NCBI GenBank assembly: GCA_951406725.2
Contig: OX597824.1
Location: forward strand, 26,908,001 to 26,972,000
DNA length: 64,000 nucleotides
DNA from: Octopus vulgaris
Taxonomy: Eukaryota
Direction of reading: 5' to 3'
Shown: positions 15,560-61,159 of the stretch, piece after piece
How positions within the stretch are numbered: position 1 is the first letter of the stretch
Layout: every line of letters starts with the position of its first letter
Program-made: the position numbers and the translations under genes
Notes under the pieces: model-generated
Seen by the model: the letters and a program-made list of their open reading frames with translations, nothing else
What the model was told of the DNA's origin: nothing
Database searches by the model: none

Positions 15560-16028
15560 CCAGCACCAGTTCTTAAGCCTGGTACTTATTCTATCGTCCC
15601 TTTCACGAACCGCTAAGTTACAGGGACGTGAACACACCAACACCAGTTATCAAACACATACACGCATACACACACATATGTACGACGGGTTTTCTACAAA
15701 ATCTACTCACAAGTCTTTGGTCGGCCTGAGACTACAGTAGAAGAAACTCGTCCGAGATGTCACACAGTGTTGCTGAACCCAAATCTATGCGGCTAAGAAG
15801 CAAGCTTCTTTATTTCATTACATTTGCCATGAAGGCAGTACATAGAGTAAAGTAGCTTTGCGGGCTGGACGAAGACATTTAATGAAATGAATGATAATGA
15901 AAGAAAGATGATAAGGATGGGAGAAGACAAAAAGCGCCCGCCGACTTCTGCTTCTCTAAAACATTGTTCTTTAAAACCAAACACAAACACAGAAGCAAGC
16001 TTCTTGCCACACAACCACATCTGTGCCA
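15560..16028 (-). mobile_element. Diverged SINE-A interrupted by the 180-bp retroelement fragment
   Basis: Head at 15991-16028, body at 15560-15810. Confidence 0.75.
15811..15990 (-). mobile_element. 5'-truncated second copy (3' end) of the ORF1-only element family, inserted in a SINE-A head
   Basis: Reverse complement aligns with about 40980-41136 (aaagaaca.tgttttagagaagc.gaagtcggcgggcgcttt...gtccagcccgcaaagctac...tggcaaat...aaataaa). 15-bp direct repeat agaagcaagcttctt at 15796-15810 and 15991-16005. Confidence 0.85.
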
Positions 16029-20429: not shown

Positions 20430-21889
20430 AAACTGTCCCTAAAAGGTCGGGCGGAGGTGGCGAACACGTACATCGCGTCCGTCATCTACTACCGCCTGAC
20501 CGTCGTACCTTGTCCCGACCCTACCATCACCAAACTACAACGCATTCTCTTTCGCTTCTTGTGGAAAGGATGCGTCCCGATGGTCAGGCGATCCATTTGC
20601 TGTCAACACCCGTTAAAAGGAGGGCTGGGCATGCCGTGGTTGATGATGCGCAGACACGCGCTGAGACTGCGACATCTCTGGCTCTATGTAGACGACGGTG
20701 AACAGGTGTGGTCGCCGTTTGTGAGGCACGCTTTCCCGCAGCTCGTCTCCATGACCGAACTGCAGTCGTGGATCAAAAAGAGGCCGAAGAAGGGCGAATG
20801 GCACCGCGAGTGTCGCGTTGCTCTCAAGCAACTCTGCCGTCCTGGGTCGACCTTGAGTGACTTCAACACAACCAAAGCATTCTATAGGGGTTTAGTGGAG
20901 GGGAGGTACGACGACGAGCTCGGGGCGAACCTGGACGTCGACGAGGAGTACCTGACCCGCCTGTTCATGACGACTTTCGGGCCAGGGCCCATGGACAACT
21001 TCCAGAGATCCCTGGCCTGGCAGTGCTACCGAGAAGCGCTACCCGTTCGGGATAAGCTCTACAGACACGGCTCGAGAAACACGGGGCCGACCTGCCCGAG
21101 ATGCGGTCAGAGCGACGAAACCGTTCTGCACGCACTCGTGCAGTGTCCAACAATTTCCGACCTGTGGGCTTGTATCGAACAACTGCTGTCACGTGTGGGA
21201 CGAGTCGGTTTATCAGCTGAGTCTATCGTTAATATTGTCACGCCTCCCTCCTTCAAACGGGAAGGAAGAGCTATTTTCATCATCCTTGTGGCTATGGCGA
21301 AAGAATGTATCTGGTGGACGCGTCTGAAAGGATTGGAGACAAACACTTTCCTCTCTGGTCAATCTCTCATCAACTTCTTCAAGTACCACTTGAAAAGGAA
21401 AGTGAGAGTAGAGAGGCAAGTTTTGTCTAGCGAATGTTTTAAAAAAGATGGGTGAATGTAGCAAGAATGGCACGTATGAATGACGAAGCCACCTTGAGCA
21501 TGATCCTATGAACCCAGAAATTGAAAACAGAGAGTTGCTTATTTGCAAAAAAAAAAAAAAAAAGAAATATAACATGTAACTCCATTGACCGAGGTTACCG
21601 TGGTCTTTTCCGTAGGCTTTTCTTTCCACGGGTAAACCTCACCTGTCCTCCCCTTTACACTTCATATTGACATTTCTGTGATAACGATCCCTATTGATCA
21701 ATTTTTTTTTTTCCTCTCCCCCTTTTTTTTAACCCCCCTTTTTTTGTCCTATTTCTCTCCTTTTACGATCCCTTTTGATCGAAACTCCCCCTTCCCTTTT
21801 TTTTTTTTTTTTAAACCTTCAAAAGAAAAGCTCTACCTTGTAATTTGTTCTATCTGTGTGCAGCCCTGTGTGGCTAATAAAGAAACATA
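20430..21889 (+). mobile_element. 5'-truncated Tx1/L1-clade LINE: ORF2 C-terminus plus 3' UTR
   Basis: [23 protein letters not shown]...LFRFLWKG...KGGLGMP (post-RT region) and [18 protein letters not shown] (zf-RVT-type C-terminal knuckle). Frameshift near 21445, stop about 21511. Pyrimidine-rich UTR, AATAAA near 21876. Confidence 0.9.
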
Positions 21890-38297: not shown

Positions 38298-38718
38298 AGG
38301 CGCAGGAGTGGCTGTGTGGTAAGTAGCTTACTAACCAACCACATGGTTCAGGGTTCAGTCCCACAGCGTGGCATCTTGGGCAAGTGTCTTCTGCTATAGC
38401 CCCGGGCCGACCAATGCCTTGTGAGTGGATTTGGTAGACGGAAACTGAAAGAAGCCTGTCGTATATATGTATATATATGTATATATGTGTATGTGTGTGT
38501 GTTTGTGTGTGTGTGTTTGTCCCCCTAGCATTGCTTGACAACCGATGCTGGTGTGTTTACGTCCCCGTCACTTAGCGGTTTGGCAAAAGAGACCGATAGA
38601 ATAAGTACTGGGCTTACAAAGAATAAGTCCCGGGGTCGATTTGCTCGACTAAAGGCGGTGCTCCAGCATGGCCGCAGTCAAATGACTGAAACAAGTAAAA
38701 GAGTAAAAGAGTAAAAGA
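38298..38718 (+). mobile_element. SINE-A (tRNA-derived, approx. 420 bp), full-length reference copy
   Basis: A-box-like tggctgtgtgg, B-box-like ggttcagtccc, internal TA/TG microsatellite, (gagtaaaa)n tail; about 19 copies in the window. Confidence 0.9.
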
Positions 38719-39121
38719 ATAAATGTAAGTAAAGCTGAAATGCATTCAAATTTAGAAAATTTATGTAAAAATTGTAGCTGATGAATAGAACTACGTAAAT
38801 TCTTTCTACACAAGGGCTGAAATTTTCGGAGGGGACTAGTTGATTGCAAAGATCCCAGTGTTTCACTATTACTTAATTTATACATCCTGAAAGAATGAAA
38901 GGTAAAGTCGACCTCGGCAGAATTTGAAATCAGGACTTGGCGACGAGTGAAATACCGCTAAGCACTTCGTCGGCGTGCTAAGGATTCTGCCAACTCGCCG
39001 CCTTCATAGAACTGCATATATAAAATAAGATAAAATAAAATAAATAATTTAAAATTTAAAATAAAACACTGTGCCAAAAAAATAGGCACAGGAGCATCTG
39101 TATGGTAAGTAGCTTGCTAAC

Positions 39122-41136
39122 GCACATGCGCTGTTAGTCAGTTTCTTCCAGTTGAACCAGAGTGGACGTGAGCTTGCTAGCTCCGTCCAATTATAGAAAA
39201 AAGACCAAAAACAGAGAAAGTTGTCGAGGTAAGTGACTTTGTTGTGAACTGGGCATAATTTGTTGCGTGCGAATTATTTTTTCAGTAAATTGTGTCCAGC
39301 TCTAGGACAATTTCACCTGCTCTCGGCTGCTGCTGTTTTTGCGTTTATTGGAAAAAAAAACAGTGGAGGGGCGTATCCTCGTCCGAATGAATGGAACCCA
39401 ATACAGTTGAAGTTACCGTTGGCGGTGGCCAGTGCTGCTGTGGTCGATTTTGTTGGATTTATTTTACCATTGGACGGCCAGGAGTACCTTTTAGGCCGAA
39501 AACTTGATTCCTTTGTCGGATTTTGAACACTCTTCTTCGAGCTATCATTTATTTAAAAAAAAAAAGAACTTTCTTGAACTGTTAATTATTTTATTTCTTC
39601 TCTTCTGTTCTGTTATTCCTTCTCTCCTTTGTGTTTTATTTTATATTTTGAACTTTTTTGAACTAGTTTTTCAATGACAAAGGAATTTCTTGTGTGGGAG
39701 TTGACACCTCCAAAAAATATTTAAAAGAGCTGGAAAGGAAGACCGTGGTGTTGAGGACTTATTCGAAGTCGCTCTACACCATAGCCGTCTTCCCAAAGGC
39801 CACCATTTTGAACGAGCTGGCGGACTACATGCCAGCCGTTAAATTTATCTCGCGGGGAGTCAAATATGCAACGGTCTGGTTGCTATTTGACTCCCCACAA
39901 GAAGCTTGCGACTTTGCAAGCCAGCCCCTTGATGGCAAAGAAATATTATTCTTGCCAAATTACATGGAGAAAAAGCTATTAAAAGCTTGGATCTGTGGCC
40001 TACCACCCGGAGTTGAGCCCGAGTGGATAGAGGACTCTATCCGCCGGGGTCTGGGTGGTAGCAATACCAAGTTGCTGAGTGTTAACATGTTGCCTGCGGC
40101 TGATTGGGAGGGGTCGAAAGCTGTTTTGACCCTATGGACCCAATCAGCGGAAAGTCTGGTTTTTCCAGATTTCTTGAGGATGGACGGGTCCAGGTATCCG
40201 ATGATGCTTGAGGAACGCCCCCCCCCCCCCAAGTGTCACCTGTTCCTGGAGACCGGCCACATTAAGAAGAACTGCCCCAGGGACCAAAGTAGGATCCTGG
40301 AGCAGTTAATGGTGGAATCTCTCCCTGCTCCCCCAATGGAGGGAGAGAAGCAGAAGAGTGACGAGGAGGTTGTTACATCCTCAAAATGTAAAAGAAAGGT
40401 GGACAACAATGGTGACCCACCGAAAGACCCGGAGCTGCGGGAGAAAAAGAGGACCCGTTGTGTGCACCACAGGAACCTCAACCTCCCGCGGCCCAGGGAA
40501 AAAAGAAAAAAAGAAAAAAGAGAAACGGGACGCCGCCGGCGGATTGTGACACGCAGACGGCGTCTCCCGAGCCTCCTCAGGCGGATGTGCCGCCGGAGGT
40601 CAGTTATGTGGTCCTCTTCCACAAAGGAGGGACCATTGAGAATGAAATAAGGAAAATGAAAAGGAGGGGCCAATGGGAGGGACTTCAGTCCTGCACGGAA
40701 GACCCTAAGTGGCCTTCGCAGATAGCTGCGGAGGTCCTATGGGAAAATGATTTGTGCAGGATCGCGAATTCCTTCCCGGCGAACACCTTTGGATTTGTAC
40801 TAGTGTGGTCTGGCCTGGAAACGAGAGAGTGCTTCAATGAAGCAAGAGCGCTGGTCGGCCGGGTGACCTGAACTTTTTGTATATTTTGAAGGAACATTGT
40901 ATCATATTGAAACCTGAACTTTCTGCATATTTTAAAAGAACATTGTAAGAGGTTTATTGCCTCATTATGATTTGTTGAAAAAAGAACATTGTTTTAGAGA
41001 AGCGGAAGTCGGCGGGCGCTTTCGTCTTCTCCCATCATCATCTTCATTCCATCACCATCATTCATACCTTTAATGTCTATGTCCAGCCCGCAAAGCTACA
41101 TCTGTGTAATGCCCCTGTGGCAAATTAGATAAAATA
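39122..41136 (+). mobile_element. Non-autonomous ORF1-only (HAL1-like) L1/Tx1-type retroelement, apparently full length, inserted in a SINE-A head
   Basis: Flanked by a 15-bp direct repeat aagtagcttgctaac (39107-39121, 41137-41151). SINE-A head 39084-39121 resumes at 41137. About 550-bp 5' UTR, gag-like ORF1, short 3' UTR ending at AATAAA (41133-41138). No RT or endonuclease. Confidence 0.85.
39674..40871 (+). pseudogene. ORF1 (RRM-like region plus zinc knuckle) of the L1/Tx1-type element, frameshifted
   Basis: ORF 39694-40650 has LLKAWICGLPPGVEPEWIEDSI and ...PPKCHLFLETGHIKKNCP (CX2CX4HX4C with the second Cys lost). Likely ATG at 39674 is in another frame. C-terminus probably continues in ORF 40458-40871. 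Confidence 0.75.
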
Positions 41137-41500
41137 AAGTAGCTTGCTAACCAGCCACATGGTTCCGAGTTCAGTCCCACTGTGTTGTACCTTGGGCAAG
41201 TGTCTTCTATTTTAGCCTCGAGCCGACCTAAGACTTGTGAGTGGATTTGGTAGACGGAAACTGAAAGAAGCCCGTCGTATATATGTATATATATGTGCAT
41301 GTGTGTATATATGTTTGTGTGTCTGTTTGTTCCCCCAACATCGCTTGACAACCGATGGTGGTGTGTTTATGTCCCCGTAACTTAGCGGTTCGGCAAAAGA
41401 CACCGATAGAAAAAGTACTAGGCTTACAAAGAATAAGTCCTGGGGTCGATTTGCTCGACTAAAGCATGGTCGCAGTCAAATGACTGAAACAAGTAATAGA
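41137..41500 (+). mobile_element. SINE-A body (head displaced to 39084-39121)
   Basis: Starts exactly at the duplicated 15-mer. Confidence 0.88.
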
Positions 41501-41887
41501 GAGAGAGAGTGTGTTAAATCCATTAGATTAAAACTTTTTATTATTATGGCTTAAGCCGCAGCCATAGTGCAAAGTCCGTGCACAAAACTTCTCGAACCAA
41601 CTTCACTGACTCAATCAAGTTGTCGACGTGTGATGACAGTATCTTCTTCTTACATCACCATGAAGTGGGTTACACAAGACTAATCTGGTTGATTTCAGAT
41701 CAGGGTGGCGTACGCAGTGACCAGATATTCGCAACCGTCTTTGCGAATATACCTGATCCTGTCGCTGCCGAAATAAATAAATGAACGAATTTATCTGATA
41801 ACCTAATATTTGGTTCCTGAGATTCTTGACGTGAACTTGTGTCTTGAAACATTCTGCTGTGTATGGGGAGGCTCATTATGTCAATAA

Positions 41888-44510: not shown

Positions 44511-45585
44511 CGCTCCCTGTGAAAGGGAAGCGTTCCGATGGTTAGGCAATCCATTTACTGTCAACACCTGCTAAATGGAGAGCTAGGCATGCCGTGGTTG
44601 ATGATGCGCAGACATGCGCTGAGACTGCGACATCTCCGGCGTTTCATACACGACGGTGAACAGGTGTGGTCGCCTTTTGTGCGGCGCGCTTTCCCGCAGT
44701 TCGTCTCCTCGGCCGAACTACAATAGTGGATCAAACAGAGACCGAGGCTAGGCGAATGGCACCGCGACTGTCGCGTTGCTCTCAAGCAACTCTGCCGTTC
44801 GGGTCCAAATTTGTGCGACTTCATTACAAAAAAGGCGTTCTAAAGAGGATTAGTTGAGGGGAGGTGCGACGAAGTTCTCGAGCAGAATCAGGGCGTCGAC
44901 AACAGACACCTGACCCGCCTGTTCAGGACAACTTTCGAGCCGGGACCTATGGACAATCATCAAAGATCCCTGGCAGTGCTATCGAGAAGCATTACCTGTT
45001 CGGAATAAGCTCTACAGGCACGGTTCGAGACACACTGGACCGACTTGCCTGAGATGCGGTCAGAGCGACGAAATCGTTCTGCACGCACTCGTGCAGTGTC
45101 CATCCATTTCGGACCTGTGAGTTTATGCCGAACGGCTGCTGTCACACGTGGGATGAGTCCGCCTGTCGGCCGAGCCTATCTTCAAACTTGCACCGCTCCC
45201 CTCCCTCAACCGGGAAGCAAGGCAGTTTTCATCGTACTGGTGGCCATGGTGAAAGAATGTGTGTGGCGGACTCGAGCGAAAAGACTAGAGACAAACACTT
45301 ACCTCTCTGGCCAATCGCTCATCAACTTTTTCAAGTACCACTTGAAAAGGAAGGTGAGAATGGAGAGGCAGGTTTTGTCTCGTGAAAGTTTAAAAAAGAA
45401 GGTGGGTGAATGTAGCAAAGATGGTGCGTGCGAGTGACGAAACCACTTTGAGCATGATCCTGTGAATCGTAAAAGAGAGAGAGAGAGAGCACTTTGCTCT
45501 TTTGTGTTTATATCCTCCCTGCCTGAGGTTACCGTGGTCTTTATGCAAGCTTTTCTTTCCATGGATAAACCTAATCTTGTTTCTT
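44511..45585 (+). mobile_element. Second, more decayed copy of the same Tx1/L1-clade LINE 3' region
   Basis: Colinear with about 20550-21650 ([20 protein letters not shown]; [19 protein letters not shown]), with stops and frameshifts. Confidence 0.88.
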
Positions 45586-59557: not shown

Positions 59558-60080
59558 ACATCATCACCATCAACAATAACAACAACATCAAAAATAACAA
59601 AAACAAATACAGAATGATATTTATCTGGATTATAATTTTGTTTAGAATCAATATAATTTTGTAATTATATTTCTAAAAGTCTTTCTCATTATTCGCGTAT
59701 TATTATTTATTATATATATTTATAAATACTTATATATATATATATACAAACAGCTAATGGGTTTTAGCTCATTAATAAATTGCCAATATTTATGTATGCA
59801 TGTTTGTATATATGCGTGTATATGTATGTACTCTGTATCTATGCATATATGTATGTATATATATATATATATATATATGTAGATGTGCAGATGTGAAGCA
59901 TGCGTTTTAACATTGGGTTAAAACATGTTATACAAGTTATATATGATTATATACACACACATATACATACAATATTTACGTAAGTATGTATATACACCTC
60001 ATTACTTCATTATAAAGGATTGCGCTAAAGCCGCTGCTAAAATGTATGCTGTACATCTGTATATATACAGTTACCTATAA

Positions 60081-60572
60081 ATACACACAATCTCATATAT
60101 ACACGCGCATAAACATACATACAAAGATGCATGTATGTATACAGACATACATGCATGCATACATACGTACTTACATGCATGCATACATACATTCACACAT
60201 ATACCTACACACAGACATACACACACATGCTCCCATATATGTATTAATACACACAATCTCATATATACACACGCATAAACATACATACAAATATGCATGT
60301 ATGTATACAGACATACATGCATGCATGCATACGTACATACATGCATGCATACATACATTCACACATATACCTACACACAGACATACACACACATGCTCCC
60401 ATATATGTATTAATACACACAATCTCATATATACACGCGCATAAACATACATACAAACATGCATGTATGTATACAGACATACATGCATGCATACATACGT
60501 ACATACATGCATACATACATACATTCACACATATACCTACACACTGACATACACACACATGCTCCCATATAT
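60081..60572. repeat. Tandem repeat, 166-bp period, 3 copies
   Basis: atacacacaatctcatatatacac at 60081, 60247 and 60413. Confidence 0.85.
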
Positions 60573-61159
60573 GTATGGCTACGTAGACACACTGTATATA
60601 TATACATATATATAAATATTCGCACACAAACGACCCTTGGTATATGTATATATGTGTGTGTATGTTAGTGTGTGTATGTGTGTATGCATGTGTGGGAGAG
60701 GGGAGAGGGGAGAGGGGAGAGCGAGACACATACGCATAAATTCATCTGTTAATTATGAAAATTACTCATATATTTAGCAGGTGTTTTCAGTTTCCAAAAT
60801 AAAATTTCTCTGTTTTATAAATATGTATTTGATCACACGCACATCTCTAATACACACATACACACAATCACGGAAGCTCGCACACATACACACTCACACA
60901 CAATCATGCACGACCTTCACCTCCTACACATATACGTACTCCCGTGCACACATATAAGAACCTCTCTCCACTTCATTCACAAATACAACATATACACATA
61001 TAAGACTCAATCACACATTCATATACACTAAACTCATTTTATAATCGTGTATAGCCAACATTGTAGAACTACTGCTAAACCTAAAAAAAATCTAGAAAAT
61101 GTACTCAATACATGCTGTAAAGAATTATTAATTATGGAATTACACGGTTTACATACATA

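Follow-up and report, generated by a model that had tools for sequence, protein, structure and literature searches.

The stretch of Octopus vulgaris DNA analyzed here (64,000 nucleotides of contig OX597824.1, positions 26,908,001 to 26,972,000, hereafter called the window) contains two retroelement insertions that interrupt the transfer RNA (tRNA)-like head of a short interspersed element (SINE), both at the positions described in a first-pass annotation of this DNA. On the plus strand, an insert of 2,015 bp (39122-41136) lies between exact 15-bp direct repeats, AAGTAGCTTGCTAAC (39107-39121 and 41137-41151), and on the minus strand, an insert of 180 bp (15990-15811) lies between repeats AAGAAGCTTGCTTCT (16005-15991 and 15810-15796). 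As annotated, both inserts break the SINE at the same point, directly after GTGGT or GTGGC, and in the SINE's orientation, and the AATAAA of the element runs into the target, the overlap being the first two target bases. In eight further SINE copies in the window, the site is uninterrupted. The two inserts have only their 3' tails in common (79.6% identity over 162 bp) and represent different subfamilies, each with many close copies in the genome. We read the larger insert, with a probability of roughly 85%, as an element carrying open reading frame 1 (ORF1) alone, placed at a fixed base of the SINE head and likely copied by the ORF2 of a 5.45-kb long interspersed element (LINE) of the L1/Tx1 group that shares this base. 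The coordinates of all features are collected in Table 1.

Target use was assessed across the 2.8-Gb assembly by selecting 3' ends solely on the sequence of the element and then reading the downstream bases. By hand tally, 166 of 171 such ends lie at one base of the tRNA-like SINE head, in the orientation of the SINE. In the subfamily of the 2,015-bp insert, for which the annotation had proposed this flank check and expected a large majority on target, 28 of 30 loci (out of 40 matches listed) were indeed on target, 18 of them followed by the SINE body and 10 by the 5' end of another element. The site was likewise found at 28 of 30 3' ends of the second subfamily (L051-L080), at 13 of 13 ends retrieved with the exact tail pattern (13 of 30 loci not counted before; one degenerate), at 19 of 20 ends reached via ORF1 protein matches (selected from 114 matches for open frames and spread), and at 78 of 78 distinct 3' ends of the autonomous family (30 plus 24 new plus 24 new). 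Thirty loci selected by their filled junction were left out of this tally. The exact filled-junction pattern occurs 574 times genome-wide (reversed control, 0), and there are ~57,000 exact empty sites (53,949 of the AAGTAG type and 3,269 of the AAGAAG-TTCCC type); the filled share of well-preserved sites is ~1%. Chance placement is ruled out, as a million target sites would give ~2e-4 per random insertion, compared to the 166 of 171 observed. The AAGAAG-TTCCC variant of the SINE accounts for 5.7% of exact empty sites versus 23 of the first 100 filled junctions listed. Of 28 sites on target in the second short subfamily, 27 have an A at position 4, and the AAGAAG-TTCCC variant occurs in 0 of 78 sites of the young LINE. 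This use of variants suggests successive waves following SINE subfamilies, or a shift in specificity.

The 2,015-bp element has a 550-bp 5' untranslated region (UTR), a single, frameshifted ORF1, and a conserved tail, with no match to ORF2 within the 2,015 bp. This copy is not the LINE itself but an ORF1-only, non-autonomous derivative. Identity of its ORF1 is 66-77% to P0001, a natural copy, and 24% to the ORF1 of the autonomous LINE; for short-element and autonomous ORF1s compared, identity was 27% (E = 2e-18). A fold model of a natural relative (predicted local distance difference test score [pLDDT], 75.5; predicted template-modeling score [pTM], 0.64; 12 sequences) matched tandem-RRM proteins (best E, 3e-5; template-modeling score of 0.23-0.38 among matches with E < 0.001), and a CCHC knuckle lies downstream of the RRM region. 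Pfam returned no family for the short-element ORF1, and the ESM Atlas gave leads only, to clusters of CCHC and ZCCHC3-type RNA-binding proteins (0.88-0.92); a supposed tie of ZCCHC3 to Tx1 was dropped when no supporting paper was found. The sole database homologue of the protein is from Octopus sinensis (62%).

Many genomic copies of the short elements have open frames of ~400-430 codons with 55-70% identity to P0001, and all 20 sampled ORF1 matches reach the 3' tail within ~0.55 kb of ORF1, which therefore leaves no space for an ORF2. Over 100 codons, two subfamilies differed at 88 positions by hand count (47 third, 23 first, and 18 second codon positions), and this third-position excess suggests apparent purifying selection on ORF1. 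The subfamilies show 50-85% protein identity and have swapped 5' UTRs; judged by gene content, the ORF1-only elements are of the HAL1 design, in the form of a radiation with exchangeable 5' UTRs. With regard to an origin by loss of ORF2, the ORF1s are homologous at 27% and the last ~30 bases are alike, and no autonomous element with a close ORF1 was present among the loci examined. Descent from mammalian L1, that is, HAL1 proper, was not indicated by a protein that has a CCHC knuckle, lacks a Pfam match, and has its only homologue in O. sinensis. Four loci (L067, L071, L076, and L101) contain a short derivative, ~490 bp long in L067, L076, and L101, with a common 5' start (CGGAGGGAGGAG-like) and the family tail, which is possibly a third, non-coding passenger tier. 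Many subfamily 5' UTRs open with GCGCATGCG-like palindromes, and others with CCGGTTCCGG or TGACGT, right after the leader that is described below; these motifs, which we take to resemble NRF1, ETS, and CRE sites, suggest promoter swapping among the subfamilies.

The autonomous ORF2 partner predicted in the annotation was found as a 5.45-kb LINE that uses the same site. ORF2 sequence was present in several of the first 30 filled junctions, and a full-length 5.45-kb copy lies at locus L111. At least 40 copies are 97-100% identical across ORF2, 104 exact 3' ends were recovered, and both ORF1 and ORF2 are open in L161-L163. The ORF2 frame of 1,133 amino acids encodes an N-terminal apurinic/apyrimidinic endonuclease (APE), a reverse transcriptase, and a C-terminal zinc finger, with ORF1 ahead of it, and Pfam matches above cut-off were Exo_endo_phos (PF03372), RVT_1 (PF00078), zf-RVT (PF13966), and zf-CCHC (PF00098). 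Its best PDB match is human L1 ORF2 (228 bits, E = 1e-66), with R2 at 72 bits. From the domain order of ORF2 and the ORF1 ahead, the LINE belongs to the L1 group of retrotransposons lacking long terminal repeats (non-LTR). The nearest database proteins (one at 63% and a group at 38-44%) are all unnamed, and homologue searches, a cluster look-up, and the ESM Atlas yielded no Tx1-named protein. Preference for a target sequence, a trait of many Tx1-clade members, is present (78 of 78 ends in the autonomous family, 166 of 171 in total), and the LINE is likely a member of the Tx1 clade. A recent O. vulgaris annotation reports 13 active L1-Tx1 families with 421 insertions totaling 2,288,644 bp (PMC13282606); division of these Table 1 values gives a mean active L1-Tx1 insertion of 5,436 bp, near the 5.45 kb of the LINE. 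Older relatives of the LINE occur as 75-86% fragments at the same insertion site. The LINE and the short elements have in common a 3' stem, TGCC-N5-GGCA, followed by AATA.

Two 5'-truncated ORF2 fragments on the plus strand of the window (20433-21446, with a tail to ~21885, and 44511-45401) show 61% and 40% protein identity, respectively, to the LINE. Both begin directly after a (TATC)n microsatellite, and the former ends in TGTGGCTAATAAAG; they possibly represent a sister lineage that targets microsatellites, like Kibi and Koshi. Distant ORF2 relatives in Coilia grayii (P0103, P0105, P0196, and P0197) carry locus tags that are almost consecutive, on a contig of the same length, which hints at a tandem array of another target-specific element.

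The length of the duplication in truncated autonomous copies was 16 bases in L245, 16 with one mismatch in L273, 13-16 in L242, 10 in L152, 6-7 in L222, and 1 in L227, L238, and L243; junctions of L247, L275, L277, and L279 were rearranged or unresolved. The truncated copy L279 (G000:C10:87096320-87102320) carries a short inverted segment at the 5' junction, in the manner of twin priming. At the 5' junctions of full-length copies, the left repeat ends in TAACC in 59 of 59 cases, including 21 of 21 in which the host has T at target position 13, and an extra base around positions 9-13 was seen in 14 of 25 host-mismatched versus 5 of 34 host-matched copies (Fisher P = 0.0015). In the subfamily of the 2,015-bp insert, L041 has TAAC at the left repeat versus TTAC in its host. 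The 15-bp target-site duplication (TSD) proposed in the annotation thus stands as an exact repeat around both inserts but not as the true duplication of full-length copies, in which it is partly an element-borne leader (21 of 21). A uniform true 15-bp TSD was rejected on the 1-16 bases of truncated copies and the 59 of 59 TAACC junctions. Because the left repeat of full-length copies is partly element borne, fewer than 15 bp at 39107 may be truly duplicated, whereas the 180-bp truncated copy has its host's own TTCT variant in the repeat on both sides, and there the repeat looks like a true duplication. Rfam matches (E up to 5) in two 5' UTRs included no hepatitis delta virus (HDV)-like or other ribozyme, although divergent ones may escape Rfam; because none matched, our guess is an internal promoter whose start point lies a few bases upstream. 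Arrays include three autonomous copies at C9:2.66-2.68 Mb, and mixed arrays were also seen, the head-to-tail arrangement arising because full-length copies rebuild the target. Among contigs from four sequence runs, which do not reveal where RNAs start, one (X16 record 9) spans a junction of SINE head and LINE with >31 bases on each side and was not used as support.

Insertion of the LINE and the short elements occurs at GTGGT^AAGWAGCTTGCT, in the SINE's orientation. In the mechanism that we propose, the APE domain would recognize this sequence and nick the bottom strand at the fixed base, and ORF2 would bind the common 3' end of LINE or short-element RNA and prime reverse transcription at the nick. 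The top strand would be cut ~16 bases downstream and often trimmed back, as truncated copies show duplications of 1-16 bases. Full-length RNA likely starts inside the target, so that the complementary DNA (cDNA) would end in target-like bases; these may anneal to the overhang of the top strand and so start second-strand synthesis, as has been postulated for R2. A usable target would thereby be rebuilt ahead of each full-length copy. The ORF1 of the short elements likely packages their own RNA.

Several observations weigh against this proposal. Endonuclease specificity, trans-mobilization, and the RNA 5' end are all inferred from sequence. Five of the 171 ends are off target (L024, L027, L060, and L065, plus L359, which has a disrupted tail), and the tally includes a number of non-independent copies, namely, inverted duplicates of the C13 cluster and members of tandem arrays or tandem neighbors. 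The 3' ends of autonomous and short elements are alike only over about the last 30 bases, the common stem has only 4 pairs and no covariation, and the tails fold no better than shuffled sequences (z of -1.7 to +0.4); in the consensus pairs of the 3' tails, a two-sided change was found in 1 of 18. Contrary to a strict leader rule, the full-length junction of L343 keeps the host-type TTACC, and L271, one of the 59, lies at a locus edge. Finally, the 78 sites of the young LINE are all AAGTAG, compared to the A at position 4 in 27 of 28 sites of the second short subfamily; because of this difference, the second subfamily was probably moved by the older LINE relatives.

Instead of endonuclease recognition, tethering to RNA polymerase III (Pol III) factors at the SINE promoter, or pairing with read-through RNA, might direct the elements to the site. 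The site indeed lies just 3' of the A-like box of the SINE head, TRE5-A is a known case of tethering to host factors near tRNA genes (PMC3706591), and the overlap of AATAAA with the target would make RNA pairing possible. However, the elements insert at one exact base, whereas tethering places insertions some distance away (PMC3706591), and decayed SINE copies are also hit (L061 and L068). L242, which occupies a rebuilt target ahead of the leader of a different element, has no B box in its vicinity; a B box nearby is therefore unnecessary. The AAG with which the off-target sites of L024, L060, and L065 still begin, and a host variant at position 1 that L136 retains on both sides, also speak against this explanation, and we consider it unlikely.

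The SINE head contains an A-like box, TGGCTGTGTGG, and a B-like box, GGTTCAGTCCC, in tRNA spacing, with the insertion just after the former. The annotation had proposed that insertion disables the Pol III promoter; the two boxes are separated in each copy hit, but little effect on the SINE family is expected because only ~1% of well-preserved sites are filled. Local alignments of the head with 27 distinct genomic tRNA sequences were weak (z of -0.1 to 5.9, best for Lys), and ARAGORN and Rfam made no call on it. Parental tRNA, which the annotation had named as an alternative target, was not borne out: the target followed by a canonical GGTTCGAWTCC B box gave 0 matches genome-wide, and the target within 3 mismatches was found in 0 of 30 sampled tRNA genes (an incomplete sample of Arg, Ala, Thr, Cys, Lys, and Glu). 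On these two results, the present target is the SINE. That a tRNA gene family is the true target, with SINE copies as collateral look-alikes or as a fallback after tRNA divergence, would agree with the tRNA layout of the head, its weak alignment to genomic tRNAs, and the targeting of small-RNA genes by Tx1-clade and Dada elements (PMC3706591, PMC4494074). The two null results argue against it, as do the flanks read, which continue as SINE or as another element's leader, and we hold it to be quite improbable, although an ancestral tRNA target may have existed. Octopus SINE families include OK and OR1. OR2 is also named as an octopus SINE (PMC4758252). At 225-294 of the window, a SINE has, in place of its head, its own B-box region in inverted orientation, a hairpin-like rearrangement.

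Independence of the insertions was assessed by comparing 28 autonomous copies in 378 pairs, the two C9 tandem copies being excluded: likeness is 99.4% over the final 230 bases of the element but 90.2% over the 110 SINE bases that follow. Flanks upstream of autonomous copies are dissimilar, and variants private to the host are duplicated on both sides in L045, L068, L136, L245, and L274. The difference between tails and hosts and these private variants uphold the central claim of the annotation, independent site-specific insertion into the SINE head by a system of the L1/Tx1 type, and the two outcomes that it had named as contrary, heterogeneous flanks and a single chimeric master, are excluded by the flank reads and the same 99.4% versus 90.2%. 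Spread of one chimeric SINE-element-SINE unit by retrotransposition or segmental duplication, with which near-identical local duplicates in the C13 cluster (L007/L008 and L018/L019) and the uniform 5' junctions of full-length copies would agree, is barely credible and was rejected for the family as a whole, given SINE bodies less alike than the element tails next to them, differing upstream flanks, many 5' truncation points each with its own duplication, and use of the same base by the autonomous LINE and by several subfamilies with unalignable 5' UTRs. The cluster G000:C13:23042000-23080000 (L031-L036) holds tandem short elements with inverted near-identical duplicates ~13-28 kb apart.

Table 1. 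Features of the two SINE-head insertions, in window coordinates.
Feature	Position	Strand	Basis
5' part of host SINE head; A-box-like sequence decayed in this copy	39084..39106	+	Alignment to the uninterrupted SINE at 38298-38320 and to the heads preceding other inserts
Left target repeat: duplicated host bases and, presumably, last few bases from the element's 5' leader	39107..39121	+	Exact repeat; locus L041; 21/21 informative autonomous copies alike
Full-length ORF1-only (HAL1-like) non-autonomous non-LTR element, 2,015 bp	39122..41136	+	Same 5' start in L040, L041, and C13 array; no ORF2 match inside
5' UTR, subfamily specific; internal promoter presumed	39122..39673	+	5' UTRs differ among subfamilies; no Rfam ribozyme family matched
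ORF1: two predicted RRM domains, CCHC knuckle, low-complexity tail; frameshifted in this copy	39674..40871	+	Open frames 39667-40650 and 40416-40871
Conserved 3' tail: GAGAAGC/CTTCTC hairpin and terminal TGCC-N5-GGCA stem (41110-41122)	40980..41136	+	Last ~30 bases resemble the end of the autonomous LINE
Right target repeat (host SINE bases)	41137..41151	+	Exact repeat
Remainder of host SINE: B-box-like GAGTTCAGTCCC, body, microsatellite, tail	41152..41509	+	84% to copy at 289-668; 87% over first 132 bp
5' part of second host SINE head	16006..16027	-	—
5' copy of 15-bp TSD, second insertion	15991..16005	-	Exact repeat
5'-truncated 180-bp copy, second ORF1-only subfamily	15811..15990	-	95-99% to 39 other genomic copies; longer members carry ORF1
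3' copy of 15-bp TSD, then decayed SINE body	15796..15810	-	Exact repeat

Elsewhere in the window, a tandem repeat with a period of ~166 bp and 92-97% identity occupies 60076-60606.

Targets reported for Tx1-clade elements are Tx1D, Mariner-N4_AMi, LTR elements, U2, microsatellites, 5S, and tRNA spacers, and tandem non-autonomous passengers are described as well (PMC4494074, PMC3706591, PMC4640811, PMC3747384); Tx1L inserts into Tx1D and Tx1-Mar into Mariner-N4_AMi, and Keno, Mutsu, Dewa, Kibi, and Koshi are further examples (PMC4494074, PMC3706591). Like these LINEs, the octopus LINE has an APE-type ORF2, a repeated target that may be a transposon, passengers that share the target (as SINEU-3 does), and tandem copies split by the target repeat. 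It is unlike them in having a SINE head as its target, in its fidelity of 78 of 78, and in passengers that are 2-kb protein-coding elements rather than SINEs. As in mammalian HAL1, the short elements are a non-autonomous L1-group derivative that codes for ORF1 alone (PMC5753468). In contrast to HAL1, they occur in an invertebrate, are site specific, have no poly(A) at the junction, and encode an ORF1 of RRM-RRM-CCHC type; they also form many subfamilies, and their ORF1 is 27% identical to that of the present partner.

R2 RNA begins upstream in the 28S target, and pairing of the overhang by cDNA has been postulated (PMC3774820). R2 has a restriction-like endonuclease (PMC4640811) and an HDV-like ribozyme, whereas the octopus LINE has an APE-type endonuclease and a leader of ~4-8 bases and matches no Rfam ribozyme. 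HeT-A is site specific and codes for Gag without transposition enzymes, and with TART and TAHRE it offers a parallel to the octopus system, an ORF1/Gag-coding element in head-to-tail arrays at a specific location with a donor of reverse transcriptase; however, HeT-A targets chromosome ends and its Gag guides its partners, whereas the octopus target is internal DNA (all PMC5537684).

A term search of the main text of the O. vulgaris annotation (PMC13282606) found neither "target" nor "nested," PMC9115989 describes an RTE element, and the available parts of PMC4758252, PMC8869645, and PMC9004415 contain nothing on a SINE-targeting LINE system. The literature searched, with subscription papers and Repbase (common places for the first report of such families) outside its scope, contained neither a SINE-targeting LINE nor a SINE target shared by an ORF1-only radiation. 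The novelty seen in the annotation holds in part: Tx1 elements that target transposons are already published (PMC4494074), and a SINE target was not found in the sources available. The class of mechanism is thus known, to which the octopus elements add the SINE as a type of target, an ORF1-only radiation, and a self-rebuilding target. We tentatively put forward a wider proposal, which we think possible rather than probable, namely, that a clan of APE-type LINEs took the SINE as its multicopy landing pad, that RNAs carrying the target rebuild the site in an R2-like but independent way, that a long-lived ORF1-only radiation has working ORF1s similar to HeT-A Gag, and that none of this has been described, even in Repbase.

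With these elements, a SINE head can be counted among the sites to which sequence-specific LINEs are known to go. The APE endonuclease of this LINE occurs naturally, is encoded in open frames, and seems to hit its target with very high fidelity (78 of 78), which makes it of interest for site-specific gene insertion. Elements nested in SINEs and in each other are likely to be misassembled into chimeric repeat models in cephalopod annotation. Second-strand priming in APE-type LINEs is a poorly understood step; with hundreds of natural junctions whose host variants are known, it becomes testable from sequence. The short elements extend the HAL1 life style to an invertebrate and open the question of why a non-autonomous element retains ORF1.

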